Notes under the pieces: generated by a model
What the model was told of the DNA's origin: nothing
Databases searched by the model: none
Seen by the model: only the letters and a program-made list of their open reading frames with translations
Shown: in pieces, positions 27,684-64,000 of the stretch
Layout: every line of letters starts with the position of its first letter
Position numbering within the stretch: position 1 is the first letter of the stretch
Program-made: the position numbers and the translations under genes
From: a virus
Virus record (IMG/VR): IMGVR_UViG_3300021399_000004
Location: 96,001-160,000 of that record
Length of the DNA: 64,000 nt
Direction: 5' to 3' (one strand)

Positions 27684-27743
27684 TTTTGTATCCTCCTTTT
27701 TTGTGGTGGGGAGGGGAGGGCTTGCGCCCTCCCCCGAGGGGCT

Positions 27744-28782: not shown

Positions 28783-29076
28783 GGAATAGCCTCCTTTTTC
28801 GGTCGTCCTGCCGGTTTTCCTAATTCCGGCAGGGGGGGTGGGGGATGTCCGGGAGGCGGTGGGGCTTGCCTGCCCTGCCGTTTTCCCTCCCGGCAACCAT
28901 AGTATAGCACACCGCCCCCAAATCCCGGTTTTTTCTTTTTTCCCAGCCGGGGGTATGGATTTGGGAGGCATCACCCCCGGAAAACGGTTCTCGCGCGCAC
29001 CTGCACTTTTTCCACCAACTTTTTATTTTCACAACTTTTATTCCAAAACTTTTATTTCAACAAACACCTCAAAGAC

Positions 29077-33103: not shown

Positions 33104-33108
33104 TAATC

Positions 33109-34662: not shown

Positions 34663-34676
34663 GGGGGTGAAGAAAA

Positions 34677-40135: not shown

Positions 40136-40645
40136 ATGGGAACGAATAAAGAGCCAACTTAGCGGCATTTCTCGGTTATGGGAGAAAATACATTTAAAAT
40201 TGCCAATAAAATTCTAGAAGATCAAACTATTTGTAGATTATTAAAATATCAAGTAAGAGATCCTCTGGATAAAAATAAGTATGCTGAGGTTGATGGAACT
40301 GATTTAATTAATAAACAAATTTTAATCGTGCCTAAAATATATGATGACAGTATTGAAAAGATGTCATATTTAGTTATTATTTTTAACGATTATGTTGTAA
40401 ATTAGTTAAACCCAGAGTTTAAAACTTCTACTATTAGATTCGATATTGCTTGTCCGTATGATGAATGGTTACTGGATGCATAGACTTTACGCCCGTATTT
40501 AATAATGCAACGAATTGATGATTTATTCAATGAAAGTAAGTTGGCTGGAATTGGAACTTTACAATTTTGGCGGGCTGACCCATTGGTTCTATCTCCGCAA
40601 ATTGGCGGTTACTCTATGAGGTATAGAATAGATGAATTTAACTGA
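40136..40645 (+). CDS. hypothetical tail-module protein (169 aa), 3 in-frame TAG
   Basis: The frame from ATG 40136 joins 40178..40405 and ends at TGA 40643-40645. Confidence 0.5.
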
Positions 40646-41405
40646 TGACGATACCTTACGATTTTAGTTTGGTATACCAGTCTTTCTTGAAGATGTATGT
40701 GCTATTTACCCGGCAACATTAAGAGAGATCGCAGAAGTTGGTTATAGCAATTTCCAAAAGTATCTTGGATTATTAACTATGGAAAAACCTGCTAAATTTG
40801 ATAACATGGATAAAGAACTCGGACAAATGTTTCGTGATATGACAGATTTTTAGTATTTTTTAAGTTTAACACTCTTAGATCCTACTTTAATCTCTACTAT
40901 TTAGCAAGCTTTTAAATTTTTTATCCATGAAGATATAATTTTTTTAATGGAGCCGCCGCAAATTATGGTTGGCCCCAAAGAAGAAAAACACATAATTGAT
41001 GAACATAATTTCTATGATTTTTAGAGAATTTTAAAGCGGATGTATTTCATAGAGCAAGATGGCGAAGAAATTATTATTGAGGAGAGCGATGATCCAAAAG
41101 TGCGGCAATTAAAAATGAAAATGAAGGAGAATCGTGAAAAAGTTAGGCGCGCCAAAGCTAATAAAGCAGCTCGTGAAAAAAGTGATTTAAAATTTTCTGA
41201 TTTGATTGGAAGTGTGACTTTAAACAACTGTAATCTAAATATGAAAAATATTTAGGATATTACTTATTATGCTTTTCATGATTAGCTTAAGCGCATGGGT
41301 TGGCGTGATGCATTTAATATTAATCATTAGGCTGCTTTAGCCGGGGCTAAGATGAAAAAAGATGAATTAAAACATTGGATACGAACTATATCTAATGATA
41401 AATAA
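40632..41405 (+). CDS. hypothetical tail-module protein (257 aa), 7 in-frame TAG
   Basis: ATG 40632 overlaps the previous gene. The hand-checked frame joins 41040..41255 and ends at TAA 41403-41405. Confidence 0.5.
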
Positions 41406-41421
41406 AAAGGGGGTAACTCTT

Positions 41422-42405
41422 ATGGCTGTAAATATTTTTGATAAATATGGTATAAAAGAGGTTGCCAATGTATATTTTGAGGCTCTAGACGATGATGAAG
41501 CCGCTGGTGTATACAAGGGCGATATCGTACTATTCTTGGATACTCTAAAAGTTTCTACCATAGAGACTACTGCTGAAAATACCGCGGCACAAGGTGGCTG
41601 GGGCAATCCTAAATTAATTCAGTGGGACTATGGCAAGGAAATCAATATTACTCTAGAGGACGCTTTAATGTCTCTAGAATCTTTACGTTTCATGCTTGGT
41701 GGCGCCATTAAGCGCCCTGGCGCTGACAGCAATAAAATTTATGTACGGCATACTGAGGAAGTCGTATGTGGCTCTAATGGTGAAGTACGTCTCCCTGAAG
41801 ACCACTTAACGGGTCAAATTCTTCATCCAGTAGCAACTTATGAACATCCTATTCGTCTTATTAACCTAACTACTGGTGCTCGTACTCAATTAGTAGCGGA
41901 GTCTAAGGGAGCGACTATTGCTTTAACTGGAGAAAAACCAATTACATTTAAAAATCCTTCTATGATTAGTGGTAAAGACCATGAGCAAGTTACCGCTGCT
42001 AATGACCACATTCGTATTTTCTGGGAGGAAGAGATTTCTACGGAAGCAGGGAAAGAACTTGGAAGCAACAGCGGAGTTGTAGAAAATGCAGTCGAAGTTA
42101 CTATTTCTCCTAGTACTTTCCCAGGCACTTATCGTGTAATTGGTGATACATTCATACGTTCTGAAAAGACTGGTAAGAATGAAGCATTCCAGTTTATTAT
42201 TAATAAAGCTAAGGTAGCTTCTGAGGTTACTCTAACTCTAGAAGCTGAAGGCGATCCTACCACTTTTGAGATGACTCTAAATGTATTACGCTCTACTAAT
42301 GATGCTGGTAAGGACGAGATGATGAAGCTTGTTCGTTATACTATTACAAAGGCGAGCAGCGGAATCGCTGATAATGACTATGGTTCCATACCTGGTGGAT
42401 CTTAA
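41422..42405 (+). CDS. putative major tail (tube) protein (327 aa), no TAG
   Basis: ORF track 41395..42405. ATG 41422 follows AAAGGGGG. It is followed by a terminator and is a paralogue of the next gene (GGWGNPKLIQWDYGKEINITLEDA vs GGWANMPHVIWDSRSEVTFTLSEG). Confidence 0.5.
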   Translation: MAVNIFDKYGIKEVANVYFEALDDDEAAGVYKGDIVLFLDTLKVSTIETTAENTAAQGGWGNPKLIQWDYGKEINITLEDALMSLESLRFMLGGAIKRPGADSNKIYVRHTEEVVCGSNGEVRLPEDHLTGQILHPVATYEHPIRLINLTTGARTQLVAESKGATIALTGEKPITFKNPSMISGKDHEQVTAANDHIRIFWEEEISTEAGKELGSNSGVVENAVEVTISPSTFPGTYRVIGDTFIRSEKTGKNEAFQFIINKAKVASEVTLTLEAEGDPTTFEMTLNVLRSTNDAGKDEMMKLVRYTITKASSGIADNDYGSIPGGS

Positions 42406-42420: not shown

Positions 42421-42452
42421 GAGGGCATATGAAAATATGCCCTCTTTTTTTT
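42421..42452 (+). terminator. rho-independent terminator
   Basis: GAGGGCATAT-gaaa-ATATGCCCTC followed by T8. Confidence 0.85.
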
Positions 42453-42464
42453 ATAGGTGATTTT

Positions 42465-43376
42465 ATGATTGATCAATATTTTGGTATAAAAGAATTATCA
42501 GAAGTTACCTTACGTGCACAAAGTCAAATGCAATTTGGCTAGCGTGTATTGGAGATTGGTGAGCCAGTTTTATATTTTGAAAATGTAAGTATGGCAGTTT
42601 TAAATGAAGGAAACCGTCCGATAATGGCTCGTGGTGGCTGGGCAAATATGCCACATGTAATTTGGGATAGTAGATCAGAAGTAACCTTCACTCTTTCTGA
42701 AGGCGTCATGTCTTCAGTTGGTATGGGTATATTACTTGGTACTAATATATTAACTGAGAAAGAGGAAGAAGAAGTTTTAATTAACAAGAGAATTGGGCCG
42801 CAAGAAGCAGAAGAATGCCCATGGAATAACCTTTAGTTAAATAATAATGAACCTTATCCAGTTGGTTTTATTATCCCAGAAATTCCAATTCCATATCCAA
42901 AGAAAAAAACATTCATATTTGAATATACAAGAGATACAATTTAGAAAAAGGTATACGGTAAAATTTTTACACGTAATACTGATTTTGGACCACAATATTT
43001 TCTTGGTATTTATGAAGATAAAAACTGTAGTGTTCCGGTGAAAGAAGGCACAACTTATTTGGTAGACTACTACTATAAATATGAGGACAAAGCGCTAACT
43101 TATAGTTTACAGAAAGAGCGCTTTAATGGATTATTTTCTTTAGAAGGAAAATTCTATTCTAAAGATGAGAATGAGGGTAAAAATTATACAAATATAATTT
43201 ATATGCCTCGTGTACGAGTTGTAAGTGATATAAATTTACACTTGGGAGAAAGGGCGAATCCTACAGTTGGAGTATTTAATATTATTGGTCTACCTGAAAC
43301 TACTGCAACTGGAAAAAATGGATTAATTGTAGATATAAGACGTTTGAACACAGACGTTGATGAAGAAATAATTTAA
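42465..43376 (+). CDS. tail tube paralogue (303 aa), 3 in-frame TAG
   Basis: One hand-checked frame joins 42549..42836 and 43038..43376. Confidence 0.5.
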
Positions 43377-43410
43377 GGCCGCTCCTAATTGGAGCGGCCT
43401 ATTTTTGTTT
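43376..43410 (+). terminator. rho-independent terminator
   Basis: AGGCCGCTCC-taatt-GGAGCGGCCT followed by ATTTTTGTTT. Confidence 0.8.
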
Positions 43411-43433
43411 ATGCGGAAAAGGAGATGAGGGGT

Positions 43434-46400
43434 ATGGCGGATACAGTTGTATCAGTTGGTGTTAAATTTGAAGCTTTGTAGAGTTCGATTAATAATTTGA
43501 AATCTATATTGGCAAATTTAGAGCCGAAAAGTGGAGGATATAAAAATTTTTCTAAGGTAATAAATGGAATTATCAGTGATTTTTAGTCATTACAGGTAGC
43601 GATGAGCAAGCCCTTTATAGATTAGAAGCAATTTGATAATGTTGATCGTCGTATAGACTTATTAACTGATAAAGTTAATGGTCTGTAGTTAAAGGCGACA
43701 GATTTAAATTTTAAAGATTTAAAGCTGAATGATTCTGAATTAGCGAAATATAAAGAATTGGCTGCCGCCATTGATGGCGCAAAAACTGCTATTAAAGATT
43801 TAAAAGATGAAGAACAAAAAGCTTTTAGGCGCAATAATGCGAGTTCATTGGAAAAATTCTTGCCTAATGCAGAGAATATGTCTTTAGACAAAATTATTAG
43901 TTAGTTAACTAAAGACGAGCAGACTATAGGGAAAAAAGTTAAATCAATGAATGAATAGCTTGCTACCATAGGCCAAAATTAGAATAAGCGTAGTTTAGCT
44001 GAAACATTGTCTACTGAGTCTTTAAAGACAGCTATGGGAGACTTATATAAAACAGTTGGTACGTAGACAGAGTAGGCTTATGTTAGAGGTGGCAGAGATA
44101 ATCTTGTAAAATTTTTATCTGAATAGTTTGGATTAAGTGGCCCCGAATGGGATGACTTAATAGCAAAAATTAATGATAAGAAAAACTCAATAAAAGTTAT
44201 TTAGAAAGAGATTAATAGCTTTTTTACAAATTTTACTTCTAATCAAAAAAATAGTCAGTTTGAAGCCTGGGGAAATGCAATTAATAGGACTCTCGCTAAA
44301 TTTGATGATGGCAGTATTACTAACGTTGAAGATGCAAAAAAGAGACTATTAGAATTACAATCAACATTAACTGAACTATAGAATTTAAAAGCTAACGCAG
44401 CTTCTACTAGAACAAGGGTAGAAGGTATCGGAAAAGAAGGTACTGTCGAAAAAAGTGCTGTGGACAGCGCGACTGCTGCATTAGAAAAATATTATCAAGA
44501 GTTAGTTAAAATTCGTTAGGGACATATTCAAACTAATACTACTCAACTTACGAGTCAATTATAGCAGTTAAAAGATGCTGCTGCGAACGCGAATGTTGAA
44601 TTTTTAAAATTAGAGCGGACTAATCGTACATTAAGTTCTATGAAAATGACTGTCTCTAACTTTTTAGGGTTTACATAGGTTTTAAATTTAGTCAGACGGG
44701 CAGTCAGAGAAGCAGCTAATCATATTAAAGAATTAGATAATGTTATGAATAGCATAGCTATTGTTACAAATATGACTACTGCTGACTTATGGGCTTAGGT
44801 AGATGTCTATACATAGATTGCACAAAAATTTGGTGTAACGATTTAGGGTGCATATGAAGTTTCTAAAATTTATTATCAGCAAGGTCTATAGACAAATGAT
44901 GTTTTAAATTTAACTAATGAAACATTAAAGTTGGCAAAAATTTCTGGTTTAGATTATGCAACAACAACAGACTATATGACCACAGCTCTTCGTGGTTTTA
45001 AAATGGAAATGTCTGATGCCGCGCATGTAGTTGATGTATATAGTAACTTGGCTTCACATACTGCTGTTAACCAGCAAGAGCTTGCAGAAGCAATGACAAG
45101 AACAGCTTCTTCTCTTGAATCAGTTGGAACAAGTTTTGAAGAAGCCTCTTCTATGATTGCTACGATTGTAGCTGTTACTCGTGAAACTGCAAATAATATT
45201 GGTAGTGCTCTAAAATCAATTGCATCACGTTATGGTGAATTAACTAAAGACCCAATGAAGTTAATTGATGAAGAGGGCGAAGCTGTAAGCTTCAATAAAG
45301 TAGATGAAGCTTTACAATCTGTAGGCATTTCATTGTAGGATTCTGACCATTAGTTTAGAAAGTTCACTGACGTTGTTAGAGAATTGGCGAAAGCTTGGGA
45401 TACTCTAGATTCAACTCAACAGCGTTATATCGCAACACAATTTGCAGGAAATAGACAGCAATCTCGTTTCTTAGCCTTAGTTAGCAACTCAGAATTATTT
45501 GAAGAGAACCTAGAATATGCAAATGCAAGTGAAAATGTTGGTACATTATAGGCTATTGAGAGCTTAGATACAGTTAGCGCTAAATTAAATCAGGTTTAGG
45601 TTGCGTATCAACAATTTTATACTACTATTGGCGCAGAATCAGCTTGGAAAACTGTGCTAGATAATGTAACTTCTATTATTAATACTTTAAATTCTCTACC
45701 TAAAGTATTTGGGAAAATACCTACTGGAGCAATTGTAGTTATTTATGATATTATTACATTAGTTAAATCTATTGCATTAAGAGGCTTAACTAATATCACA
45801 AAAATAATGGTTGATACAATTACTCAGACGGCATTAGCGGCTAAAGAGAAGGCAGCCTAGACTGGCGGAAGCGCGGCAGATGAGGCGACACGTGAGGTAA
45901 ATGCTCGTTCTTCAGCTATGGAAGCGGCCGGTCAGACTTTCTGGGGTAAATTTTTCCATCCTCTTTCAGAAATGAAAAATAGAATGAAAGCTGAATGGAA
46001 TGACATACAAACATTCGGAAAAGAATATAATAATGCAAAGAACTAGTCCCCAGTAACTGAAAATAAAAAAGAGGAAGAAAGGGCTCAGGGAGAGTCTGCA
46101 AATGCTGCAGAGAATGCAAATGAACGTGTTGCAAAAGCGGAGCAAGACGCTGGAACAGCAGTAGCAGAAACTAATAAAACGATAGAAACGTAGAGTGAGG
46201 TTCTTTCTTCTGTTGGCTCAGCCGCTGAGACAACTACTCAATAGGTAATAAAAGGTGAACAAGAAAAACAAGAAGCGATTCAAAAAACTGCTGAGGTTGC
46301 TCAATAGTCTAATCCTAATGGAAATACAGCTTACAATCCGCCCTTAACCTTTGAGTCACCAAAAGAACAACAAGAAAGAAGGAGTCAAGAACTAGTGGCG

Positions 46401-49400
46401 ACTCAACAGAGAGAAGCAAAGCAGGAGGCTATAAAAGAAAAATATATTAAGGATAATAATTTATATCCGTTACTTACAGCGCCGTCTGCGACACCTTTTT
46501 CTGCATTAACGTCTAATCCCGAAGCTATGAAATGGCTATTAGCTTCTGAATATAATCCTATTCAAGATCCAAAACAGATTTAGGAAATGTTTGGTAAGAT
46601 GGATAAAAGTATGCCAGGCTTTTTCTTTGGCACTGGTTTGTCTGGTAGTACGGCTACACCACTTGCAGGAAAAACCGATGCGTATGATATTTACTAGAGA
46701 TGGCACGACTTTGCCGCAAAAATGACAGATCCAAAAATATTAAAGAGCTTTGACGAACTTGGTTTGTTTAGCCAAACAGAATAGTTCCTCGGACGAATGA
46801 GGGCTAAATATTCTGATGCAAAATATCCTCAATACCCTAACCCGGAGACAATACCAAAGTATTAGGAGGAGTAGAGAAAATTTTAGGATGAAATAGAGCC
46901 ACAATTTAGACGATTTTTATCTGATAACGGGTTAAAAAATGATTTTCCATTAAATGGTGGTTTAAGCGAGCTTGTTAAAAATATTTATGCTTTTTAGCAA
47001 GCACTCCAATATATTTCACAATAGCAGCCATAGACTCCATCGCCTGCTTCTACTCCTACTCCTACTCAAGCTACTTAGGTACAGCAAACCGCTGAAGAAA
47101 ATGCTGCACAAGGCAAGAGTAACTTAGCTGAGGCAAATAAAGAAGTAGCAAATTCCGAGTAGGAAGTAACATAGGCTGTAAATGGCACAGTCGATGCTTT
47201 GAATAAACAGGGAGAAGCTATAGAAAATGTTACTTCTGCTTCTTCACAGCAGGCACTGAATTCTCCTGCTGACGCTTAGGCGGTATGGAACGAGATTGGG
47301 CCAACAACTCTTTTGAATATACAAGACTTGTAGACAGCTTTAGAGTTATTAAAAGAATAGAGCAATGTAGATATTAAAATTAGTAATAGCTCTTTAAATG
47401 CTGAAGAACTAGAAAAAGTTAAAGAAAAGATAGCTCAGATTCTAGCGTAGAGCGAGCAGTTAAATAATTAGAAAATTATAATAACAATTGATTCTAAAGC
47501 GGTTGAATAGGTTGAACAATAGGCAAAATAGGCTAATGAAGAGTTACAAAAAATGGAAGATACTAGTTAGTAGGCAATGGCGGCAACTAGCTAGACAGGA
47601 AATTAGCAGATATTAAATAATCAATATCCTAATTAGGCTGCCGCGCGTGAAGCGGCGCTTGCTAGTGCAGAAGCATCTTTAAATAAGCTACATGCAGATG
47701 ATGCAGCAGGTAATGGTCCTGCTACAGCAGAAGAACGCATGCAATAGTTGCTAGCAATTGTTAATTAGATTAAAGCGATTGCTCCTGGGATGCTAAAGCC
47801 TGGGATCGACACTATGCAAGATGTTGATAAATTAGAAGAAACTCTAACTAAGATTATTAGTATATCAAAAACTAACGGTTCGGAAACTAAATTTATCTGG
47901 AGCGACTTAACAGTAACTAGGAATCAGTTAGATGAATTGGGTTATTCTTATGATGCTGCTAGCGGGAAAATTTAGGCTTTAAATTTTGCAAATTAGCAAT
48001 ATCAAATTACACAAGAATAGCTCCAATATTTAATCTAGAATCATATATCATCAGAATAGGCAATCCCAGCATTATTATAGGCACATGAGCAGGGTGTATT
48101 AAAACTAACATAGGCTGAAAAGGAACGTCTTGAAACACTTATGGCCTTAAATGCAGAATAGGAGCGTTTAAGCAAGGGAGCGCCTGCAGGCGGCGCACCT
48201 GTAGGTGATGCTAATGGAGGCAATGAAAAGGCAGGATGGTGGGCTGCTCTTCGTGGTGCTGCAAAAGGTGGGCGACTCGCTTCTTACGGTAGCGCTGCAC
48301 GTATGGCCGGAAATTTCTTAGGATCTATACAGGACACATCCACAAGAGCAGGTCAATAGGCTAGCGGATTTTTTTAGGGAGCTGGCGCTATAGCTTCTAT
48401 TGCTATGAATCCATATAATCCAGTAAACTGGATAATGGGTATATAGTCACTCTGGAGTGCAGTAGAAACTTTTAATGAAAGTGCAAAAGAAGAAGCGGAG
48501 CGCTTAAAGAAAGAAGCCGAAGAAGCACGAACTGCCGCAAAAACTGCAGCAACTGAAGTTAGAAGTTTAGAAGAAGGATAGAAAAAAATAAAGAAGTTAG
48601 CTGAATCACGTTATGACTCAGAAGAAGCTGCGCAAGAATACTAGGATACGGTTGACTCATTAGTAGATCAATTTCCATAGCTAATTGCCGGGTATGATGC
48701 AATGAATAATGCTGTTATAACCGAAACTTCTCTTACTTTAGCGTTAAGCGAGGCTAGACGTGAATCAGCGGAGGCAACTTATGATGCTTTATAGGCTGAA
48801 CGAAAGGCGGCAGATAAACGAGCTGAATCAGCTGAAAAAGAAATTATTGCTGCTAATGAATTAAGCCCTTATTCTGGTACGAATGACCAGCTTGCTGAGT
48901 TTGACTATGAACTTAGTAATTCATTAGCCAGGTATCTTGATTCTTCTAATGATTTAAAGGGAGCTTTATAGCAGTTAACTATAGAGAGACAAGGCAATGA
49001 AGATGTATCATGGAGCGATTTAATAAATCAGTTAGAGCCTGAGAATATAGCATAGGTAAATAATTTAAAGGAAAACGTCGCTCTTTTAATGGGGCTAGCA
49101 AGTGGCAGTGAAATTAGCAATGATTGGTTTAACTCTTTCATGGATTTATACTTGAGTCAAAAGGATGATACGAGTGCATTTAGTTCTCGCGCAGGAATTT
49201 TTGATATATTGTTTATGACTGATAAATAGTAGGATGAGTCACAATTAAATGATGTTATAAAGAACTTTAATAAGGCTAAATAGGAAAAAAAATATTCGGA
49301 TTTAATTGATTATGGTAATCAACTTATTACGTTAATTCAAACTACTGAAGCTAGAGACCAAAACGAACAAGAGTGGCGTACTAATATTATTGGTGAAGTA

Positions 49401-52400
49401 TAGTCAATATTAGAAGATGCTATTACATATCAAAAAGAATCTGGAACTGCAGCTTCATTAACATAGGCTGAATTAGTTGCATGGCAACGTAAAAATATTA
49501 ATTCTAAAACTTATGTTAAAGATAATGATGTCACAGCATTTACAGATCTAGCGGCAATAGACTTATAGTAGTAGGCACAAGCAAGTACAAAATCAGTTTC
49601 TGATTTAGAAGCAGATTGGCTTGCATAGCCACCAGCGATTTTAACTACTATACAAGAATTTTATGAAAAATTAGAAATAATAGATGCTGAAACAGGGAAA
49701 CGTGCAAATATATTATTTGATCAATATTATAATGATATGCAGCATTGGACCGGTACAGATTTGATTAGTAGATTTGGTCTTGACGAAGACGAAGATAAAG
49801 AAATCATTGAGTTATTGAGAAAGCGTTATACGGAATCTTCAACTACTTTTATTAATAATATAAATAAAAAAATAAATGACCTTGATTTTATAACCAATAA
49901 AGATGAGTATTTATTAACAACTATCGAAAAAGGCGGCTAGTAGATATCAGGTATATAGTACGATCTATATATTAGTGCTATAAATCAAGCACAAAAATTT
50001 GCTTAGCGCGGTTTAACTGCTACTGCTAATTCATACTTAGGTTAGACTTTATCATTATTAGGATGGATTGAAGAACATATTACTGATCCTGAACAATAGA
50101 ATCAAATTTATGATATTTTAGTAAAAAATGAAGCTTTTACAAGCAAAGAAGGCTGGGCTAAGGCTGCACAGGCTTTAACAGATGCCGGTTTTGATGATAC
50201 AGGTTTAATTGAACAAGTGACGGCAGCTGGTAAAACATTTTTAACAAATGTTTCTTTAAGTTTGCAAGCGGCTACATCTAGCTTATTTGAATCGCTAGAA
50301 GATTAGAGTAAAAATCTATCTAAAGCATTTTCTGGGATGTCTGTTAAAGAAGCTAATGATTTTCTAGACACATTAAAAAATTATAATATAAATACGTTTA
50401 GCTGGTCTGATCTTGAATTAAATAGTAGTGGGAAATTAGCATTAAAATCGAGTAGCGTTAGTGGCTATAGAAATGCAGTATAGACATGGGTTGATAAATA
50501 GTTAGAATAGGCAGCAACTGCTAGAGATGATGTATATAGACAACTTTTTGACATTGATAATAGGGGTAATATTACTGGAAATATATCAGATAGAGCTTCT
50601 GAATTGATTCGACAAACATTGGGTACAGAACTTGAAACAATTCCAGAGAATAATAAATAGTATATTGAATCATTAATTGAATATGGATTTTTAAGTGTTG
50701 ATGATAAAGGTAAAGTATAGATAGCTAAAGAATATAATAAAAATAACAATGTAGCAGAGTCAATTAAGGAGTTCAGAACTGCAACTGATAAATCATATAA
50801 TGTCCTAGCTCAGGGCGCTCAAACAATTGTGGATATGGTTACTTATTCTGCAGAATGGGCGCAGGGTATTTATACTTCATTGTTTAGAAACTTCGGTGAA
50901 GGCGCAAATAAAGATTAGCTGTTGTTACAAGCTTTAACTGGCACTCTTAGTTCAACTGACTATGATAAACTTACTGATTTTGATAAGGCAGGTATTAAAA
51001 ATGCGGCTAGCGCTGCAGAACAAGCGGTTTAGGATTTTATTTCTAAACGCGGCCAAAATATGCATGTGAGTGATTACGCCGCGGCACCACAATATATAAA
51101 GAAAAACTTAAAGTCGGCATTAGATAATTTAGGGAAAAGCTATGACAATTTTGAATTATATGTATTAAATTTAACAAAAGATTATACTTCAGAAATTCAA
51201 ACTATCGTTAATAACTAGGTTTCTGCAATAAACTCTTTATATGAGGTAGGCAATTAGGGTCTTTATGCTATTAATGGAAAAACTGCGATTTCAGCTGATG
51301 AAGCTGGTAAGTTAGCATCATTTTTAGGCTATAAGGGCGATGGAACTTTAAGAGAATATTTAGCTGCTCAAGGTTTAGTTTATAATTCTTTAACAAATGA
51401 GTTCGATATAACATCTGGTTTTATTACTGATGTTGTAATTCCTGCTTATTAGAAAATTGCTGAAACTGCTAGTAATGAGCAAGAGAAGGAGCAAGCCCAA
51501 GCTTAGATTGATAAATATACTAATTTAATGAAAAAAAATGGACAATCAGCTATCGCTACATTAATTAAAAATCGCAAAAATGTTTCTGAAGAAGATATAT
51601 CAAATGTTGCTAATGCTTTTGAAGGATTAGACTATAATCAAGTTTCAAGTGTTGTCCATGATGGCGTTCTCAATATCGGAGAATTGATAAGTTTATTTTC
51701 ACAAATTGATAAGCAAACAGCTAAAGAACTCTATACTGCCTATGGGGCAGATCTGGATGAAAGTTTAGGTTTTTTAAATAAAGCGGTTGGCTATGTAGCT
51801 AATGGAACGACTAATTAGAGTGAAATTGCAGCTTTTACTAGTGAATATTTAGACGTTGTAGGAGAAGTGCTCGAAGCAGGGAATTGGGTCTATGATAGCG
51901 TATTAAAAACTACGACGTTAAGCGGTGATGCTGCATAGAGATACATTTAGGCAAAGCGGGCTAAATTAACAAAAGAGTATGGTGAAGGAAACAAATAGTT
52001 TATTGATGAATATTTAAAGAATAATATCATAAGTTAGATGGTTGATACTGGTACTTTAGTTAATGTTGCCACTGGCAAGAGCACTCCATTAGATTCTTAT
52101 AAATTAGAAAAAAATTTAATGGCCGCATATAGCGCATTAGGGTATGGACCTGGCTTAGCAGCTGGTAGAGCTTCTTGGGCTAAGACAGCGTTATCAGAAG
52201 CATCAGGGACTAAACGAGTTGAGGCTTTAAAGAGCCTTTCAGAAGAATTAAGTTTACAAATTACTCCCGAACAATACCAGTAGGTATATGAAGCTCGAAC
52301 TTAGTCATTGATGGATCTTCAAAATAGTATACATGACATTGAAGCAGGTACTATAATAACTTCTTAGGCAAATGCTCAATTATTAGCTAAAGCTGGATAT

Positions 52401-55400
52401 TAGATTAAAAATAATCAAGATGGTACATATCTAATAGAAACTGTTGGTGGCATGGTCGAAGCATATTATTTAATGTATTAGGAATTATCACAAGAAGCAA
52501 GTTCTACGACAGCCCAATTAAATTCAGTTTATGCAGCAATGTTAAGTGAACGAGAAAAATCATAGAGTACTGCAATTGAAGCTTTATAGAATGCTGCTAA
52601 AATGTCTTATGAACAATTAGGAACATTATTAGCTTCTATGGGTATGAAACTTGAGGATGTAGCCAAAAATTTTGAAGAGTATGGAATTAAATAGCTTGGT
52701 GCTGGGCAGATTCGTATTTATGATTTTGAGGCGTTCGCGGGCAAATTAAACTTAAGTAAGGATTCTGAAGAATATTTATCTGCTTATTCAACCTGGGTAG
52801 ATTCTATGATTACTGTTAATAAAACAGTAGAAGAATAGATTCTCTCTGAAGTAGATAAAATTAAAGAGGCAAAAATTGGTGATCAAATTAATGTCACTTA
52901 TTTAGTAGATGCATTTGGTGAAGAACTTCTAGAACTTTTATTCGGTGAGAATAGTATTGCTAATGGTATTTTAACAGTTACCAGCCAATTCACACGTGAG
53001 TCTATGGTTGGTTTATACCATGCGCTTAAATCCAGTGATAAAGTTAACTTTAACGAACGCGATTTGGCTAAATTTAAAGATGATTTTTAGACTAATTTTA
53101 TTAACAAATTATCTGAAGGTATTAATAAGGCTTTAGCAGGAACGTTAACAAATGTTGAAATGCAAGAATTAATTGAAAATCATACTGGTATAACTTCAGA
53201 TTATTTTATTAAAACTGAATAGGGCTTAAAACTAACAATTGCTCAAGCTACAAAGTTATATTTCTAGTTAAAAGAGATTGATACTATTGCATCTAATATT
53301 GTATTAAAAGAATTAATTAAGAGTATGCAAGAAACTGATTCTAATTATAAGACAATGGAATCTACTTTAAGAAGAATCGCTGAGTTACATGAATTAATTA
53401 ATGCTGCAGATAGTGAAAAAAATAGTGCTAAAAAAGAATAGTATGAAGAAGAATTGAATCTTGCGTTAGAAATTCAACGTGTACGCGCAACTACTCGTGA
53501 TGATGAATCTTGGGATTTCATGAGTCGTAAAATGCCAGAAGTATTAAATAATCCATTTAATGCTCTCAAGAGCGTTGGCGCAATGATGACGAATTTCAGA
53601 AATTCTTGGAAAGAAACAACACAATATTTTGATTTAAATAGCGGACGATGGACTAAGAGTAAGGGCATGATGGGCTTTGATTAGTTCTATAGTATGGCTA
53701 ACATGATGAATGAACTAGCTCTTAAGACTGGAAATAAATTAGTATTAGCAGGCCATACATTAGACGGTGGCGCCTAGGAATTTGCTAAATTAGTCACTTC
53801 TACATATAAGACTTTGGGCATGTTAGAAGATGGCTCAGCTGTAGTTAATTTAGGTGCAATTGGATTAAATTTTGAAACTGGCGCGGATCAAATGCGGCTG
53901 GGAATTGAAAATGGTCTTCAAGAGGCAGCAAAGGGTCAAGTACAGATGCTTGATGGAATGATCCAAGTTGTCGAGACTATGGCCGCTATGGAAGAGCTTG
54001 GTCAGATTGCTGGCGAAGATATAATGTTGCAATTACCGACAATTGATTTCGATGCCGAAGAAAATCAAGATACTTTAGCCAAGATGAATGAATGGCGTCT
54101 AAAATATGTACAAAAATTTATTGAAGGTAGCGAAGAATACGATGAAGATGTAGCAAAAGCTGTAAATAACATTAAATATAAAAATGAAAAAGGCGCAACA
54201 ATAGCATTAGCAGATATATTTAAGAAAGACATTGCAGATTGGACTGAATTAGAAAAAGCAATAATGTCAGGCTATTATAAAGCTGCTAAATCAGGTAAAT
54301 TAAATGATCAAAATTAGATCTGGGAAAGTATTCAAGAAGCCTTAGCAGGTGCCGGTCTTGACGGTCAAACAATTACTTTACCTCTTGGTGAGAATGGAAC
54401 CGAGATTACTTATTTTTATAAAGATGGCTTTGCTATTGAAGTTACTAGTAACGGATTTAAAGTTGGCGATAAGACTTATCCTAGTGAGAAGCAGGCAATT
54501 CAGGCTGCTATTCTAAAAAATTTAGGGCAAGTTAACTTAGATGAGGTAACAGATGATAAAACTCCAGTTACTGGCACACTAAAATTGGGCAGTCAAGGTA
54601 TCAAAGTTAGTTTTGACGATAATGAGCATGTTTAGTATGAATATAATGGAGTAACTTCTAACTCTATTAATGGTTTATTAACGGAACTTTGGAAGCAGGA
54701 TGAAACGAAAGGCGAGCTAACACTTGAAGAGTGGAAAATTCAATAGGAGTTTACTATTGTTCCTGAGTTCAATAAGGATATTGAATTAACAAATGCTTAG
54801 AAAGCAAATCTGGCGGGAAAGTCGGCATTAAATTTACAACAGGAGTGGGCTGATGCCGTAGAAAAAAATACAACAGTTCAATTTGAAGCTAAATATGGCT
54901 TTAAGTTAACCAACAGTAGTCAACTTACTGATGAAGCTTTAGAATAGCTATTAGCAGGGAATAAAATAACTGAAACTACAACAGATTTAACTGTTAAACT
55001 AAATTCTAATAGCTCACCTATTGCATCCGTGTTAGAAGCTGGTAAAACTACCGTCGATGTTACACTGAATGTAGCGGTAGTAGGCCCTGGTGCGGGCTTA
55101 GCTCAAGCCATGTTCGGAGGATAGACGACTTCTGAACAATAGTAGCCACAAAAACCAGCGCCAGGTAAATAGCCTCCACCAAGTTAGCAGCCACCTTCTG
55201 GCGCAATATATGATACACCAGATTCATATCGTACTACGCCAACAGTTACTACTAAGTCTGTCGGTGTTGAAGGCGCAGTTATTGTTGGCACCTTTACTAC
55301 TGAAAGTATGGTGGCTAATTTTGTTTAGCCAGATGGTAGTATTTCACAAACAATAACTATCCTTGGTGTACCAGTGGCTGTCGAAGGCGGAGCTACTAGC

Positions 55401-58400
55401 GAAGATGTAACATTAGTATATACTGGAGAAACAACTGGCTTTACATTATATAAAGGTGGCGTGCCGGTTGCATAGTTCACGACCGAACAAATTCTAACAG
55501 CATTGAATGTAGCTGACTTAGGTGAGTATTAGGGCCATCGTCTTGTATATAATTTTTAGACAGAAGAATTTGAATTATGGAAGGGTAGTACTCGTATAAC
55601 TGCTTTTTCTACAGAAGAAATTGCTTCTAAATTACTCCTTGATAAAAATGTCACGCCTCTATCAAGAAATACTGTATTACAATACAGAGGCGAGACAGAA
55701 GGCTTCCAAGTTATTGATCAAACAACTGGTTAGCCTCTTGTAATTTTGGGTACTGGCGAAGGAAAAATTGAAGAAGTTGAAGGAACTATAGTTAAAGATG
55801 CTGATGGTAATGTTCACTTTGAATTTACTGATGATACTGGTACTATATACACTGTAGATTTATCTCAATTTTCTGGTTTAGTAGGCACTGGCGCTACAAT
55901 TGATCCTACAAAATGTAAAGCGAAATTTAATAGTGACACTGGCACAATAACATTTTCATATGAAGCCGGTGGCGAAACTATAAGTGAAGAAGTACCAATA
56001 ACTGGTGTTAATTTAACTGGTACTGCTGCATTAACTGATGCAAAAGTTACAGAAATAAAGGCAGCTATCGCTAATGCTAAAGGGTTAACTCCAGACGAAA
56101 AATTAGCATTGTTAAATGCATTAGGTGTAGATAGTTCAGATTATACAATAGATTTAGGAACAGTGACGCCAATCGCAACGGTAGGAACTCCTGAATTTTA
56201 CGGCTTATCTGAAGGTGATAGGTTCTTAGCGAGTATGACTTCTGCTAATTGGACAGAAAGTGCTGCTTAGAGTCATGTGGCAAGTAAAGTATATAGTCCG
56301 TTAAATGGCACTTTATCACATGAGCTCACTCCAGAAGCAACAGCCGCCTATCATGATATTGAAACAAAAGTTAGAAATGGACAAACTCTAACATCCACAG
56401 AAAAAAAGTTTTTAAACTATTTAACACATTCACAACGGCAAAATTCACATTATAAAAATGAAAAAGGTGAAAACGTATTCGTAAGTAAACAAGCTCAAGA
56501 TTTATTAAATGCTAACGCTCTTATTGAGGAAGAATTAATGACATCTTTAATTCCAGCTTTAGCTGGCCTAACAGATATTAATTATGATAAAATTCTTTCT
56601 TTAAGTCAAGCTTTAGGAACAATTGCTATGTCTGGTATGGATATTCAAAAAATTAATTGGCAAGACATAGTTACAAATTTAAGTGCATTGTCTGGTATTA
56701 ATATTGCTCCTAAAGCGCTACAAGATCTAGGTTAGCTTGCAGGCGTGATGGCTTTAATCAGCGGTGGCACCGTAAAAAACCAATTTGGTGTGGAAGTACA
56801 ATCAAACGGTTTACCAGCATTGGCTACTAGTTTAGGTAATTTATCTAATATTTCTTATCCAAAAATTAGTGAAGGTTTAAATAGTATTGCCACTGCATTA
56901 AGTAAAATATCATCTGTTTTATATCCAGTTGATAATAAAGTACCTTTTAAGTCTACTTAGACTGATACCACTAATACTAAAAAATAGGAATTATAGGCAC
57001 TCTTAGATGGCGACTGGAGTGAGCTTGATCCAAGTCAATTAGAATCAGCTGTTGAGGATATGAATCATATTCTAGATGAATAGGCCGCTGAGGATACATC
57101 ATTCTCTGACCGTTTTTAGACAGCTACTGAGAAGTTTACAATAAATGCAAAAATGTTTAACCATATGATTCAATTAGCTAATGATGCACTTGGTTCTACT
57201 CAAATGCCACAAGGTTTAATTGATCTCAAAGGTATGATTTTACAGTTAGTTGGTATTGCTCCAGATACTGAAGAAGCAAAGCATTTAACTGATTTATTCA
57301 AAGGTAGTGTAGAAGATTTCGCTAATACGCCAATCGGACAAATTAATGCTGGCTTTAATGAGTTATAGAAGTCAATTGATAAATTATCTAGTGCAAACTT
57401 TAACGGCGGTTCTAGTGGATTAATTGACGTAAGAGGCGCTATATCATTATTAGCAAAAGCTAGTTTTGGTGCAGTAGCTAGTGGATTAAGTAGTATAAAG
57501 AGCGCTTTAGCAGGATGGAGCTTCCCACAAATACCAGCCTCTTCTGGCGGCAATACGGCTTCTTCTAATGCAAGTCAATCTGCTTAGATGCATACTGCTG
57601 TAGATGCAAAAGGAACAATTGGCCCCGCACAAGCAACTGGCACTCTAATGGGCGAACTCGGCCCTGAACTTTATGTATCAGGTGGCCGGTATCATATCGC
57701 TGGTCAAAATGGTGCAGAATTTGTTGATTTACCTGATGATGCAATTGTCTTTAATCATTTACAAACTAAGAAATTATTACAAACTGGCGTGGCTGGACGC
57801 GGAACGGCTATTACTAATGAACGTACAGCAGTAGCCTATGCAAAAGGCACTGGCCCTGCGATGGCTAGCGCAAGTGCTGTATTGGCTACATTAAAAGAAT
57901 TGCGTGATGCATGGTAGCGTTTAACTGATTTACCACTAAGTTAGCTAGCTGGCATGGGCGGCGGCGGTGGTGGCGGCGGTGGCAGCCAATTCACTAAAGA
58001 CCTCGAACGGTGGTTTAATATACTTTAGAGAATTGCACGCCTTGAAAAACTTATTACGCACGAAGAACAATTATAGTCAAAATTAGAGAATGATCGTTTA
58101 ATTCATGGAAATTAGATATATGCTAGTTAGCAGCGAGAGGCTCAAGCGTTACAGTAGACAATCAATGAAAATCGTGAATTACTTTCTTTATAGCAAGGTC
58201 GTTATCAAGAGCGTATTGACTAGCTCATGCGAGATAATGCATTCTTCCAACGTGTATATACTATTGATTAGAATACCGGAGCTATTTAGTTAAGAAATAG
58301 AGAAAATACACCAGAAGGTGAAGCAATTACATATAATGGTAGAACTTATGATGATGCGTATGCTATTTTAGCTGAAATTGCTGGTGTTAATCCAAACACA

Positions 58401-60260
58401 AATGAACCATTACATAATGCTAAAGAACAACTAGCTATGCTACGCGAAGTATTTGGTGATGCATTAGTAGATTAGTATACTACTTATGATTCTTCTGGCA
58501 AGAAGATTACAAGTGATGAAGAGCGTGTACGCGCTTTCTTTGACATGGCTGATGGATTAAAAACTGAAGTAACTACTTTATAGGATACTTTAGAAGAAAC
58601 CGAAAATGGTATTTTAGAGAATCAACAAAAATTATCTGAAATTCTTTAGAAATATGTAGATAACTAGTTGGCGGTGGAATAGGAGCTTACTGAGGCTATT
58701 GAATCACGTGAATAGGCTGCAATTGATGAAGCATAGAAAGAACGTGATGCATTTAGTAAGCAATAGACAGCATTAATTGATGGTTTAAGTGCATAGTTAG
58801 ATAAAGAGCGTAAAATGTATGAACGGCAACAAGCCGGAGAAGATTTAAATAAAATGCGGCGTTAGCTAGCTATTTTATAGAGATCTGGCGGCTCTCAATC
58901 TCAAATTCGTTCTTTGCAAGATCAAATCAATTCTGCTTCTTAGGAAGCATATTTTACTGCACAGCAAGATCAAATTGATGCAATTAAAGAAGCCTCTGAT
59001 TTATAGTTAGAGCGTATGGATACTCAAATTGAATTAATGACAGAAACATTGGAATATTAGAAAGAAAATGGATTATTCTGGCCCGAAGTTACTTAGATTA
59101 TGCAGCAAAGTCCAGAAGAAATTATGAATTTTATTTAGACTTATAAGCCTAATTATCGTAGTGATTCTGAGTTGCAAATTGAAGAGAATTTACGTCAATT
59201 AAGGAATATTGTAGAGCAATGGACAACAAGGAGAGATGACCCGAATGCTCTTGACGTTAATGGCAATATTACTGAAACTCCAAATGACGTCTATTCAATG
59301 TATAGTAACTGGTATACAAATACAGCATATCGTCAATTTAGTACCGCATTGTTCTCTGAGAATTATGCTGAACGAGATAAATTAAATTAGGATGCTATTA
59401 ATGCATTCTACGAAACTTGGAATAGAACAGGCGATTTACGGTCTGCACAAGACGCGGCTGCCGCGGTATTCTAGTCACATGAGGATAGATTGAGTGAGAG
59501 CGATAGGAATAATCATGCATGGTAGATTGAGTAGAGGAATAATCCTCCTGGTGGCGGAAGCAGTGGAAGCAGTGACTCTGGAGCTTCAGATAACAATGCA
59601 ACTCTCAAGGTAATCGTATATGTAGATGGAGAAATAGAGTCAAGAAAAGCATATGTATATGCTGAACCTTTTATTGTCATGCCAAGGTTCTTCGGGATGC
59701 CTCGTGAAGGGTATGATGTTAGTATTACTCCATCAGAAGGCTTTACAATTTTACCTGGAGAGACAAAACAACTTACAGTTAAGTATACTAAAAATGCAAC
59801 AACTTCTTATTCGACTGTTACAGAAACACCGCCTACGGATGAGTTAACTCCTCATACATTCCAGGGGCAAAAAGATAACACCATTGCATCAAAAGGAATA
59901 GGATATACTGCAACATAGAGTTATGCTAGTGGTAATAGTGATTATAGAACTCGATTAAATAATTTACTAAATCGTCTCAATTCTTCTTCAACATCGTTCG
60001 CACCAGACTTAAATAATTTAACAACAGGTATTGTTATGCAATCTTTCCTCAACTCTTTAGCGTCTTTAGATAATTTTTCTACTTCAATGGAAGTTTTGCG
60101 ACAATTGCAACAAGAGGCTGGTAATTAGGTCACTAATATAGTGAACGTAAATAATCCTGTTATCAGAGATGAAGATGATATATAGAAAATTTCTGATACT
60201 ATTGAATAGAAATTATTATCAATAGCTAAGAAAACTGGAGCTTACATGAACGTGCGTTAA
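43434..60260 (+). CDS. tail tape measure protein, 5,608 codons, about 179 in-frame TAG
   Basis: I read every codon of this frame by hand from ATG 43434 (after GGAGATGAGGGG) to TAA 60258-60260. There is no TAA or TGA, and the only interruptions are TAG, including a TAG-TAG-TAG run at about 49566-49574. The 16 in-frame ORF-track fragments from 44931.. to 59679.. all share the frame. A TP901-type TMP core-like segment is present (NSIAIVTNMTTADLW..LKLAKISGLDYATTTDYMTTALRGFKM..AVNQQELAEAMTRTASS..NIGSALKSIASRYGEL). A C-terminal GPELYVSGGRYHIAGQNGAEFVDLPDDAIVFNH motif and a Gly10 run are also present. Confidence 0.8.
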
Positions 60261-60273: not shown

Positions 60274-61929
60274 ATGGCTATGAATACATTAATAGGGCAA
60301 GAAATTCCCTAGACCGGACCTAAACGAACTTAGGTCTGGCAAGCGACTCATTATGAGGGAGGCAATCGCCTCCCTCTAATGAACCGCTCTTTTATTAGTT
60401 TTAATTATGATAATCATTGGTGTGAAGATATGGGAGTAATCGCTACAATAGATGGAGATATGATGTCAAAATCTATTTACGGCAATTTTAATGATGTTGT
60501 AAGCGATTTAGAAGGAGTCGATGGCCAATTATATTGGAGCACGCATTTTACTAATAATACTTTATCTTTTACATTATCTACTGACGCCGTGACTGAGCGC
60601 CAATTGGATGAAATTAAAAGGTGGTTAAAACCGGGAAAGATTGCCCCTTTAGTACTTGCAGAGAATCCTAATCGAGAAATTTTAGCTCGTATTAGTGATA
60701 ATCCTCCTGAATATAATATGTTGCCTTTTGAACAAAAAGAAAAAATTAAGCTTGGCGGATATGAATATACAACAAGCACAACGGTATATCGGGGAAGCTT
60801 TTCGGTGACTTTTATAATGGATGAACCGTTCTGGCATGCTAAAAAAAATATTCTAGATATGGATAAGATTTTATATTGGAATAACGCTAATGATAATAGA
60901 AGTGAAATTATTAAAGATAAGGATGCATTAAAAATTATTTTAGAAGATGGTATCCCATTTGGCTCTGTTATGTTAGAGAATGAAAATATGTTATATGGCG
61001 TTCCAAAGAAATATAAAGAAGCATCGAATGATCCGGGCACTCTTCCAATTGTCGGAAAAGCAAAGGTCGGCTTAGCGAAGTTAGGCAGCTGGTTCCATTC
61101 CTATGACAATATAGAAAATTTCAAATTTTTAGGCGGGGAAAGCCAAGCTCAATATTTTTATTATCCTGGAACTGCGCCTTCCGCGCCGACTCTTAAATTT
61201 AAACTAACTCCAGTTTTTGATTTAAATGGTTATATTACAATGCCAAATAATTCTTATTCTAGCCTTAATAATAAAGGATATAATACAATCACAATTGAAG
61301 GGTATAATAAAAAAGAATTGCATTTAACAACGCCGACAGTTTATACTGCTTATAATTAGGCTATTGCTATTGTGAAGTAGGCTGTTGAAGGGCAAAGTAA
61401 TATTAATAATAAAATTAAAATTGATGCTGGCGAATTACGTTAGCTATTAAGAGATGGCGTTAATCATTGGGCTGTACGAAGTTATGCAATTGCAACTTTT
61501 GATAGAATAAAAAGTACGGCTCAAGAGGGTGAAGATTGGTTATCTTCATTAATCGGAGAAATGAAGGGATTCTTTACAGATGACTCAAATGAATTGACTT
61601 CTGCATCTTTTGTCATTAATTGTGAGACTGGAGAAGCTCTTGGCACTTTTAAATATCGAGTATATAATGCGGCTTCTACTAAGAGTAATAAATTTGAGAT
61701 TACAGAGCATACCGAGCAAGTTGGAGATATGATCTTATCTAATAATTTTATTATTGAGGAACGTAATTACTTCTCAGAAGATGGCTTTATTCGCGCGTGG
61801 AGTAATGAGCATAAAAATTACAGCCATCGTATTTATCATGATTTTGGAGTTATGTCTAATGGAGAATTAGTAGAATCAGAAATGGGGCTGCAAGATTTCT
61901 TAATTGAGTATAGATATTATTACTATTAA
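60274..61929 (+). CDS. distal tail protein (Dit-like, Sipho_tail type), 5 in-frame TAG
   Basis: AAAGGAGG lies upstream of ATG 60274. One frame joins 60379..61359 and 61561..61929. SFISFNYDNHWCEDMGVIATIDG is typical of Dit N-termini. The alternative start is ATG 60379. Confidence 0.6.
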
Positions 61930-61948
61930 GAAAAAGGAGATGAAAGGA

Positions 61949-64000
61949 ATGAATATAGAGGAAAGAAAATATGAATTGTCTGTATGGACAATTTAGGATG
62001 AATACATTGTTACTTTGACTAAAGGGGCTGGTCAGGTACAAAAGGCAGAATTTAAGAATAATGTTGATGGTACTATGAGCCTTAATTTTGAGATTCCTAT
62101 GTATATTAGGAGAAATGGAGAACGAATTGAAAACCCCATTTGGTGCAATACAATTAATGGTGTAATAATGGCAGACCTCAAAAAGATTAAATTAATTTTT
62201 AATAAACATACTGACGATGAAGCAATCTATGAATTTATTATTACAAAAGTAACTGAATCACATGAAAAGGATATTTTAACCTGCAAAGTTGAATGTGAAG
62301 GATTAGCTTTCCATGAGTTAGGTAAGCGAGGATATAAAATTTCTTTAACAACAGATGATTATATTAATGATGTAAATGATTGGTTTCATAATGTACCAAA
62401 AGAAGAATAGACAATTTTATTAGCCAATCCTGACGCCGATTCTGTTACATTAACTTTTTCTTCTTTAGTTGCTAGTAAAAGATATTATAGCGTTGGGCAG
62501 TCTCCTACAACTGGGTAGGTTATTGATCCAGAACCAGTAGATGGTGAAACTTATCATCGTATTATAAAATTAACTGATTTGAAACCGGGCACTCAAATTA
62601 ATATTAACAGTGAAGATGGCACACTTGCTCGGCCATGGATTTTAATAGATCAAACTGATAATAGCATGATTACTTGCGCGCAAAGCAAACGCGCATATAA
62701 TGAGACAATAGTAGTTCCTAGTGAATATGTTGTTAATAATATTAAGAAAATAATTACAAAAGCAATTTTAATTGTTTAGTTTAGAGAAAATGTTGGCGGC
62801 ATGACAATAAATGATGCTTTTGTTACAAAAATGATTAATCAGAGCTATGGGCCACTTCCGCAGGCAAATATTGAATACTGGTTAAATAAATTTTTATCTC
62901 CATATCCAAGTTATGGTGTTAATTTATTATAGCCTAATGTATCTTATGATAACATAACGGCTGGGATGAGTGTGCCAATCAATCCAAGAAAATGGTACTA
63001 TACAATAAGAATGAATTGGGGCGGATTTTCAGAATATACTGTTAGATAGCCTAATAAAATTTATGAAGAAGAATATGTTGGCTCATGGGAATACGACAGT
63101 GAGAATGAAGCAATTTATGCTAATGCAATGGTCGATAAGCAAGAAAAATATCGTTTAGTTGATCTACAAGAAAGCAATATTTATAACCTAACGCAAGACC
63201 TTGCAAAAACTTTTGGCGTGTTTTGCCGCTATGAATATTTATATGATTAGCAATATCATATTATTGGGCGCTTAATTGTATTTTATAATAGTTTTTTTGA
63301 AGAACAGAATGGTTATTTAGATATAACTTATCCATATTCTACAGATACAATTACTCGTGAAATGGACGGCAGCGAAATAACTACTAAATTATTTGTAAAG
63401 CCAGTAAGTTTAGAAGAAAATGAAGAAGTAGATATAATGAATTTAGATACTAATAAAACTTTAGAAGATTATATTCTTAACTTTAATTATTTAAAAACAA
63501 TTGATTCGCTTACGGAAGAATAGAGACAAGGCATAGATAATTTTGAAGTTTAGATGAGACAATTGAATAAAGAAATTATTAAATATAGTGAAATGGAAAT
63601 TAGCTTTAATGAGCCATTGGTTGATCTTGAAGCAAAACGAACAATAATTGAAAATTCTATCAATGAGAATACAAAAGCATTAGAAGAAATAGCACGTTCG
63701 CGCGCGGCATTAACATAGACAGGATACTTAACTGTTGGTTATGGTTTTGTCCTTTCTGAAGAAGATGACCCCCATTTTGCAGAACGCGGTAAATCTAACA
63801 AAATGCCTGAATTAACAATTATTACTGCAATGGAAGGGCAAGCAGAATTTGATGATTCGGCCTTTTAGGATGATGCAGTTGTTAGGTTTTCTTCGTCCTC
63901 AGTTACTGGGAAAAAAGAATATTATTCAGTTGGCGAAAGCCCAGTGGCTGGTCAAGAGATTACTAATGTTACACAAGATGCAGATCATACTCATTATATT
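61949..64000 (+). CDS. tail-associated (Tal / prophage tail endopeptidase-like) protein, 5' part, at least 15 in-frame TAG
   Basis: ATG 61949 follows AAAGGAGATGAAAGG. The hand-checked frame joins 62015..62410 and 62579..62779 and runs open to the window end. YELSVWT...DGTMSLNFEIPMY is a Tal-like N-terminus. Confidence 0.6.

Follow-up and report, generated by a model that had tools for sequence, protein, structure and literature searches.

The 64,000-nt stretch of viral DNA analysed here, referred to as the window (positions 96,001-160,000 of the IMG/VR record IMGVR_UViG_3300021399_000004; all coordinates below are window positions), carries a tape measure protein (TMP) gene of 5,608 sense codons. 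The gene is one open reading frame (ORF) in which TAG stands for glutamine, its giant size is common to a clade of relatives from rumen metagenomes, and its product consists of four conserved blocks set between spacers of variable length. We regard it as nearly certain that this is one recoded TMP gene, and as quite likely that the reading which best combines the results is correct, namely a single gene with TAG read as glutamine, the whole chain of which would serve as the ruler for the tail.

The frame at 43434-60260 on the + strand contains 178 TAG codons, no TGA, and no internal TAA; the closest in-frame stop on its 5' side is a TAA at 43386. A first-pass annotation of the same DNA had traced one uninterrupted frame here, which holds from ATG to TAA, and had counted about 179 TAGs; in-frame TAGs are indeed present, and the exact number is 178. 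From base composition, ~323 TAA or TGA codons would be expected over this frame, and the probability of finding none is ~1e-145. G+C content falls from the first to the second to the third codon position in 12 of 12 tiles of 1.5 kb along the gene, indicating a uniform coding signal, and the alternative frames contain 13-70 TAA or TGA codons each per full 1.5-kb tile. With TAG read as glutamine, the product would have a mass of ~617 kDa and an isoelectric point of 4.7, with one cysteine.

An expanded or collapsed repeat, which the first-pass annotation had named as a possible source of the length, was sought in both DNA and protein. Tandem Repeats Finder and a search for dispersed repeats detected nothing in the gene but a short GGC/GGT run, and self-BLASTP detected no internal repeats in the protein. 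Because neither level shows repeats, repeat expansion or collapse does not account for the length of the TMP, and we rejected this artefact. A JGI metagenome contig of 9,290 bp (3300002641; locus L079) is 100% identical to window positions 45846-55135. Its public standard-code annotation lists 14 ORFs of 6-165 aa without a Pfam match. A 40-mer from the C-terminal part of the TMP had no exact copy in IMG/VR or JGI metagenome contigs, and megablast of the gene against INPHARED returned no match.

Identification of the product as a tail tape measure protein follows from its core domain, its family matches and its place after the tail tube genes. The sole Pfam domain of the protein is PF10145 (PhageMin_Tail), close to where the first-pass annotation had placed a TP901-like core (near residues 420-640). 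The N-terminal ~840 residues match five PHROG TMP families (phrog_4211, the best, with a profile of 2,625 positions, and phrog_28, 1533, 1272 and 167; E values down to 5.5e-34), and the C-terminal 2,808 residues match no PHROG family. The gene lies between the tube genes and the slots for distal tail and tail-tip proteins. This order (tube, tube paralog, TMP, distal tail slot, tail-tip slot) is collinear with phages Tsamsa, 949 and PJN02 and with a 184-kb rumen contig, ENA WILK20-1 scaffold_186 (locus L078), with which the whole module from portal to tail tip is collinear at 35-70% identity. Domain content, synteny and equally large single-ORF relatives, standard-code ones among them, together bear out the first-pass proposal of one tape measure gene running through its TAGs.

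Recoding is a property of the late genes at large. In the + strand block from ~29.1 kb to the window end, long ORFs appear only when TAG is read through, and terminase, portal, TMP and other late genes all require it; the standard-code ORFs at 29-64 kb are fragments. All 14 complete late genes examined terminate with TAA or TGA, never with TAG. We aligned nine window genes with 12 standard-code relatives, which yielded 97 TAG columns. Glutamine stood opposite the window's TAGs in 47% of 497 observations, compared to a background of 4.0%, an 11.7-fold enrichment, with 1.4-fold for the next residue and at most 1.9-fold for any other. Because glutamine is so strongly enriched at these positions in standard-code relatives, the alignments identify TAG as a glutamine codon, as in genetic code 15. 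The sum of TAG, CAA and CAG in recoded relatives is about that of CAA and CAG in standard-code relatives. TAG makes up 44% of the glutamine codons in the TMP gene and about a quarter to half in other late genes. The major capsid gene (36538-37605), the gene preceding it (35908-36522) and the tail tube gene contain no TAG, which suggests selection against this codon in what are presumably the most highly expressed late genes. In the TMP gene, the first TAG is codon 16, and for half of the chains to be finished despite 178 TAGs, each of these codons would have to be read through with a frequency of 0.996 or higher.

TAG use was compared across IMG/VR loci L002-L073, in which the tube protein shares 57-72% identity with that of the window. 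Sixteen TMP loci lack in-frame TAG, one (L009) has 0.6% TAG, and ~38 have 1.4-3.65%; the standard code is kept by roughly a quarter to a third of the rumen relatives. Reassignment to code 15 appears to be recent or repeated inside one clade.

These relatives, which are rumen-metagenome contigs of ~160-190 kb, also define how large a TMP is typical of the clade. In every IMG/VR relative with enough flanking sequence, the ORF located ~1 kb past the tube gene overran the 10-kb flank and has at least ~3,000 codons. Full-length genes were assembled by joining loci anchored on the tube gene with loci anchored on the TMP C-terminus, giving six complete TMPs of 3,539, 4,146, 4,915, 5,012, 5,129 and 5,232 aa. 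Two of them, those of 4,146 and 5,129 aa, lack TAG altogether and are thus single ORFs even without recoding. With a TAG-free segment of the TMP as query, an exhaustive HMMER search retrieved 58 proteins, mostly of 2,700-5,700 aa, including one of 5,744 aa (L078, 83-84 TAG) and one of 5,273 aa. The window TMP is the second longest among those found here. Given that the single ORFs of its relatives span 3,539-5,744 aa, giant size is a trait of the clade and the window protein is no outlier. Searches for relative loci with a mid-TMP tile and with the protein of the distal tail slot gave no match.

Comparison of the window TMP with seven full-length relatives revealed four blocks, A to D (Table 1), each of which occurs once per protein and in the same order. 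Block D holds the motif MGELGPELYVSGGRYHIAGQNGAEFVDLPDDAIVFNH at residues 4739-4775 (nt 57648-57758; MGELGPELYV...DDAIVFNH), which is kept in relatives, so that the GPELxV...FNH-type segment anticipated near the C-terminus is real and conserved. The motif is followed by a glycine run that had been read as Gly10; the run is there, but it comprises nine residues (nt 57957-57983), and its counterparts in relatives range from 6 to 13 glycines. Neither the GPELxV...FNH motif nor poly-glycine was found by regular expression in the TMPs of Tsamsa, 949, PJN02 or P23-45 (gp96), and tblastn of a 109-aa GPELYV fragment against INPHARED gave no match. The end segments are fairly constant in length (451-613 aa from the N-terminus to block A, 276-545 aa from block D to the C-terminus) and the internal spacers vary (105-859 aa between A and B, 787-2,808 aa between B and C, 425-1,516 aa between C and D). 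Fixed anchors with variable spacers are the pattern expected if selection acts on the length of the spacers and not on their sequence. Hydrophobic-moment periodicity is of the alpha type over most 100-aa windows of the TMP. An AlphaFold2 model of residues 3449-3627 in block C, based on a 16-sequence alignment, shows long helices (predicted local distance difference test score, pLDDT, 56); it is one of two models, both of low confidence, that cover short TAG-free fragments of the protein. Chou-Fasman-style scoring of secondary structure was uninformative.

Tape measure proteins are the rulers of phage tail length. Three phages with long TMPs calibrate the relation: Tsamsa, whose TMP of 3,123 aa was detected in virions by mass spectrometry and whose tail is 440 nm long (0.141 nm/residue; PMC3903500), 949, with 3,276 aa and 500 nm (0.153 nm/residue; PMC3888941), and P23-45, with 5,002 aa and 800 nm (0.160 nm/residue; bioRxiv 10.1101/2022.12.01.518664). 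At these ratios, 5,608 residues predict a tail of 791-897 nm, an extrapolation that assumes equal length per residue in beta-rich segments. The full chain would act as the ruler and give a tail of ~0.8-0.9 µm, near the longest known, a reading we hold with somewhat better than even confidence. The first-pass estimate of roughly 800 nm, derived from a lambda-based ratio, agrees with the range of 0.141-0.160 nm/residue. It had been judged extreme for a siphovirus, and extreme it would be, as siphovirus tails mostly measure 50-200 nm (PMC10034513), but not without precedent: the Thermus phages P23-45 and P74-26 combine a 5,002-aa TMP with tails that measure between 800 nm and nearly 1 µm (PMC10770324, PMC10034513), and P74-26 has the longest known tail, almost a micron (PMC10034513).

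The late genes of this phage read TAG as glutamine, so that the 178 in-frame TAGs are sense codons; without suppression, translation of the TMP would halt at codon 16, and the gene would presumably stay silent until the decoding state is established. From what is known of the family, a few TMP copies would then bind the tail-tip initiator through their C-terminal region, and tube protein would polymerise around them until the end of the chain is reached, so that chain length sets tail length. Between the four anchors (block A with its PF10145 core, then B, C and D) lie fast-evolving, probably mostly helical spacers, whose expansion and contraction would tune tail length across the clade.

Several observations weigh against the whole chain acting as a ruler of the predicted length. 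Periodicity is of the beta type at residues ~3600-4300, ~4700-4800 and ~5400-5500, and the second AlphaFold2 model, of residues 4101-4278, shows beta hairpins (pLDDT 58, low confidence); the secondary-structure evidence is crude, and such segments may differ in length per residue or not act as a ruler. The tail length is extrapolated from other phages only. The TMP of Tsamsa runs as two virion bands, of 280 and 100 kDa (PMC3903500), and by analogy the mature window protein may possibly be processed. ARAGORN detected no tRNA of any kind, suppressors included, in the 64-kb window, which is about a third of a ~170-kb genome, or in 60 relative loci; an Rfam scan of the window found no family. Finally, only 9.3 kb of the gene is spanned by the identical JGI contig, which may have been assembled from data that are not independent.

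The beta-type segments lend some substance to a composite TMP, in which only part of the chain measures and one or more segments, residues ~3640-4300 above all, would be a cargo or effector domain carried in the tail and ejected into the host. Such proteins exist: residues 327-1124 of P23-45 gp96 form an active RNA polymerase within a 5,002-aa TMP (PMC10770324), and other TMPs contain muralytic domains. In the window protein, a Pro/Gln-rich linker flanks the beta-rich stretch, residues ~3900-4650 have no counterpart in six aligned relatives, and residues 3630-4433 found no match among 5.8 billion database proteins, although the same was true of residues 3200-3640 and a 5-mer word filter is probably responsible. 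Yet nothing enzymatic emerged. Beyond the N-terminal core there is no Pfam, PHROG or PDB sequence match (the PDB search used residues 4560-5608), no muralytic domain was detected, and Foldseek searches of the PDB with the two modelled fragments returned nothing below E 1e-3, top matches such as PCNA and SAMHD1 being noise. A P23-45-type RNA polymerase domain was rejected: direct comparison of the TMP with gp96 revealed no similarity (E 0.3 at best), and motif scans found no RNA-polymerase-type DxDxD, no HExxH, and a single cysteine in 5,608 residues. Moreover, the segment is internal, at ~65-77% of the chain, and would have to fit inside the ~4-nm lumen of the tube, and the whole chain predicts the tail in all three calibrating phages, P23-45 with its RNA polymerase domain counted. 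Judged by these searches, an embedded enzyme is unsupported; of the embedded non-ruler domains suggested in the first-pass annotation, the beta-rich stretch is the candidate that is left. We consider a composite TMP unlikely.

Less probable still is that one gene yields several mature products, through cleavage of a precursor or a TAG-truncated ladder, with a functional ruler shorter than the ORF. The two Tsamsa bands speak for it, as does the fact that fewer than half of the chains would reach full length if read-through per codon fell short of 0.996. However, the Tsamsa tail still fits the full ORF at 0.141 nm/residue, and block D, the best conserved part after the core, is said by family knowledge to be needed at the tail tip; the strong conservation of this C-terminal block argues that full-length synthesis is under selection. 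The lowest probability falls to an artefact of assembly or annotation, that is, a chimeric contig or adjacent genes falsely fused by ignoring TAG stops. The source is metagenomic, standard-code gene calling yielded 14 short ORFs from this DNA, and the C-terminal part has no exact copy in the contigs searched. Against this stand the vanishing chance of so long a frame free of TAA and TGA, the lack of repeats able to mediate a mis-join, the presence of each conserved block once and in family order, the stop-free ORFs of 4,146 and 5,129 aa in standard-code relatives, the need for TAG read-through in the adjoining late genes along with the alignment of TAG to glutamine, and the identity of 9.3 kb of the gene to the JGI contig. 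The artefact is thus largely refuted, and we retain a single recoded TMP gene whose whole chain would be the ruler.

Giant TMPs (P23-45, P74-26, Tsamsa, 949) and recoded TMPs of more than 3,000 aa (phAss-1) have been published, and the window TMP is a new, near-record case of a known kind of gene. The TMPs of three giant siphoviruses of Bacillota, namely the Bacillus phages Tsamsa (gp226, 3,123 aa) and PJN02 (3,080 aa) and Lactococcus phage 949 (ORF130, 3,276 aa), are encoded in the same gene order and share the PF10145-type core at 24-25% identity, and the great length of these TMPs is matched by that of the tails (440-500 nm). However, the window TMP is 1.7-1.8 times longer, its blocks B, C and D were not detected in these proteins by BLASTP or regular expression, and the three phages use the standard code. 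The TMPs of P23-45 (gp96) and P74-26 belong to the same functional class and size range and demonstrate that a ~5,000-aa TMP does build a near-micrometre tail (PMC10770324, PMC10034513); the window protein is 12% longer than that of P23-45, which has a different host phylum and structural module and uses the standard code. TAG is recoded as well in the phAss-1 group (proposed Phassvirus) of the human gut, with genomes of 133-138 kb, TAG reassigned to glutamine, and TMPs of 3,149-3,209 aa (PMC10607447). Its large genomes are likewise of siphovirus type, with the TMP and other late genes interrupted by amber codons, and its TMP core is 32% identical to that of the window, as for distant relatives. 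Its TMPs are ~2,400 aa shorter, its genomes carry tRNA-Sup-CTA, of which the window has none, and it comes from the human gut and not from the rumen. The rumen relatives (IMG/VR 3300021399_000002 and _000003, 3300028833_000067, L078 and others) have the same module and four-block TMPs of 3,539-5,744 aa, many of them TAG-recoded, and differ in the lengths and sequences of the spacers. Our literature search found no description of this rumen clade or of TMPs above 5,002 aa, which is not proof that there is none.

With its 5,608 aa, and 5,744 aa in one relative, the window TMP exceeds the 5,002-aa P23-45 protein that the literature calls giant, and would mean that tails of the micrometre class occur in the gut, an ordinary anaerobic habitat, instead of a hot spring. 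The clade is a natural series, from 3.5 to 5.7 thousand residues with fixed anchors and variable spacers, for studying the ruler rule at extreme lengths and what the conserved internal blocks contribute. With 178 amber codons, one essential gene sets a strong quantitative limit on the efficiency of reassignment, and the mixture of close kin, some with the standard code, some with weak (0.6% TAG) and some with heavy recoding (as much as 3.65% TAG), suits the study of code switching. Giant recoded genes vanish from routine standard-code annotation and from protein databases, as the shredding of this one into 14 fragments illustrates. A bolder and rather improbable extension is that this phage and its relatives with TMPs above 5,000 aa (up to 5,744 aa) are mesophilic gut phages whose tails equal or exceed the P74-26 record of nearly 1 µm, that the lineage-specific beta-rich insert of ~700 aa is a foldable payload delivered through the tail, and that decoding reaches at least 99.6%. 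If so, the insert would be a second, unrelated cargo domain fused into a TMP after the virion RNA polymerase of P23-45, and TAG-to-glutamine decoding of at least 99.6% per codon would entail that release factor 1 of the host is neutralised almost completely.

The genes around the TMP (Table 1) form a structural module of the Bacillus SPbeta/Tsamsa/lactococcal 949 type. The L078 genes carry precomputed Pfam matches YonB, YomW, YomV_2nd and YomU_Tube, named for SPbeta prophage genes. The tube protein of the window, which has no entry of its own in the gene-position index, is 30-33% identical to annotated tail tube or major tail proteins of Tsamsa-like phages, PJN02, FADO and 949. The neighbour immediately 5' of the TMP gene is annotated as 'putative site specific recombinase' in both 949 and PJN02. 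The L078 protein in the tail-tip slot (29279-35077, 1,932 aa) has faint Hint/intein-type Pfam matches. The hairpin between the tube paralog and the TMP start would probably act as an attenuator that lowers transcription of the low-copy TMP gene, and the layout of the two terminator-like elements would fit a drop in expression from high-copy tube protein to low-copy TMP. We infer that expression of the TMP would thus be regulated both by this upstream element and by recoding.

Table 1. Features of the TMP gene, its product and the adjoining genes in the window
Feature	Position (nt)	Residues (aa)	Strand	Remarks
YomV_2nd-like gene	40632-41405			59% identical to a YomV_2nd-family protein; PJN02 counterpart annotated as putative tail assembly chaperone
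Major tail tube protein gene	41395-42405		+	No TAG; 70% identical to a rumen relative's YomU_Tube protein (PF27173)
Terminator-like hairpin and T-run	42421-42444		+	Directly 3' of the tail tube gene
Divergent tube paralog gene	42429-43376		+	phrog_2729; directly 5' of the TMP gene; 20% identity to the L078 YomU_Tube protein
Intrinsic-terminator-like hairpin	43376-43409		+	10-bp stem, 8 GC pairs, then T-run; between tube paralog and TMP start
Shine-Dalgarno sequence AAGGAG	43419-43424		+	9 nt 5' of the ATG at 43434
TMP gene	43434-60260		+	ATG start, TAA at 60258-60260; 5,608 sense codons
Block A		~380-830	+	Holds the PF10145 core and the most hydrophobic segment
PF10145 PhageMin_Tail, TMP core	44820-45449	463-672	+	Pfam E 6.4e-30; 105 bits, cut-off 33.2
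Most hydrophobic TMP segment, GAIVVIYDIITLVKSIALRGL	45726-45788	765-785	+	Candidate membrane-inserting helix
Block B	48231-48923	~1600-1830	+	Gly-rich, hydrophobic; GWWAALRGAAKGG...GAGAIASIAMNPYNPVNWIMG
Block C	53052-54383	~3207-3650	+	Common to 3,000-5,700-aa proteins of public metagenomes
Beta-rich stretch	54351-56333	~3640-4300	+	Pro/Gln-rich linker at aa ~3900-3925
Block D	57591-59453	~4720-5340	+	GPELYV...FNH motif, Gly9, then coiled-coil-like sequence
Distal tail protein (Dit) slot gene	60274-61929		+	Ribosome-binding site AAGGAGG just past the TMP stop; 43% identical to the L078 gene 3' of TMP
Tail-tip (Tal) slot gene	61940-64000		+	Extends past the window end; sub-threshold YOMG_N match; 35% identical to the L078 1,932-aa protein

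Outside the structural module, the window contains an AT-rich tract of ~3 kb (24001-27000; 11-26% GC) without ORFs, in which AAACATCTAACTAATATTT is repeated 3.5 times at 24080-24146, a related unit lies at 25254-25295, and positions 26143-26509 are taken up by a (TGTATATATATA)n-like array; one possibility is that the tract marks an origin or a genome end. Directly past it and just 5' of the packaging genes, ~1.8 kb at 27250-29000 has 55-67% GC, compared to a window mean of 38%, and holds long overlapping ORFs on both strands with low-complexity translations and no Pfam or Rfam match. The left arm includes standard-code genes on the minus strand (609-1112 and 13097-14146), among them those for a PcfJ-like protein and for a protein with a HAD_SAK_2 domain, and a + strand ORF at 4379-5788 with eight in-frame TAGs, the translation of which looks helicase-like by eye only.

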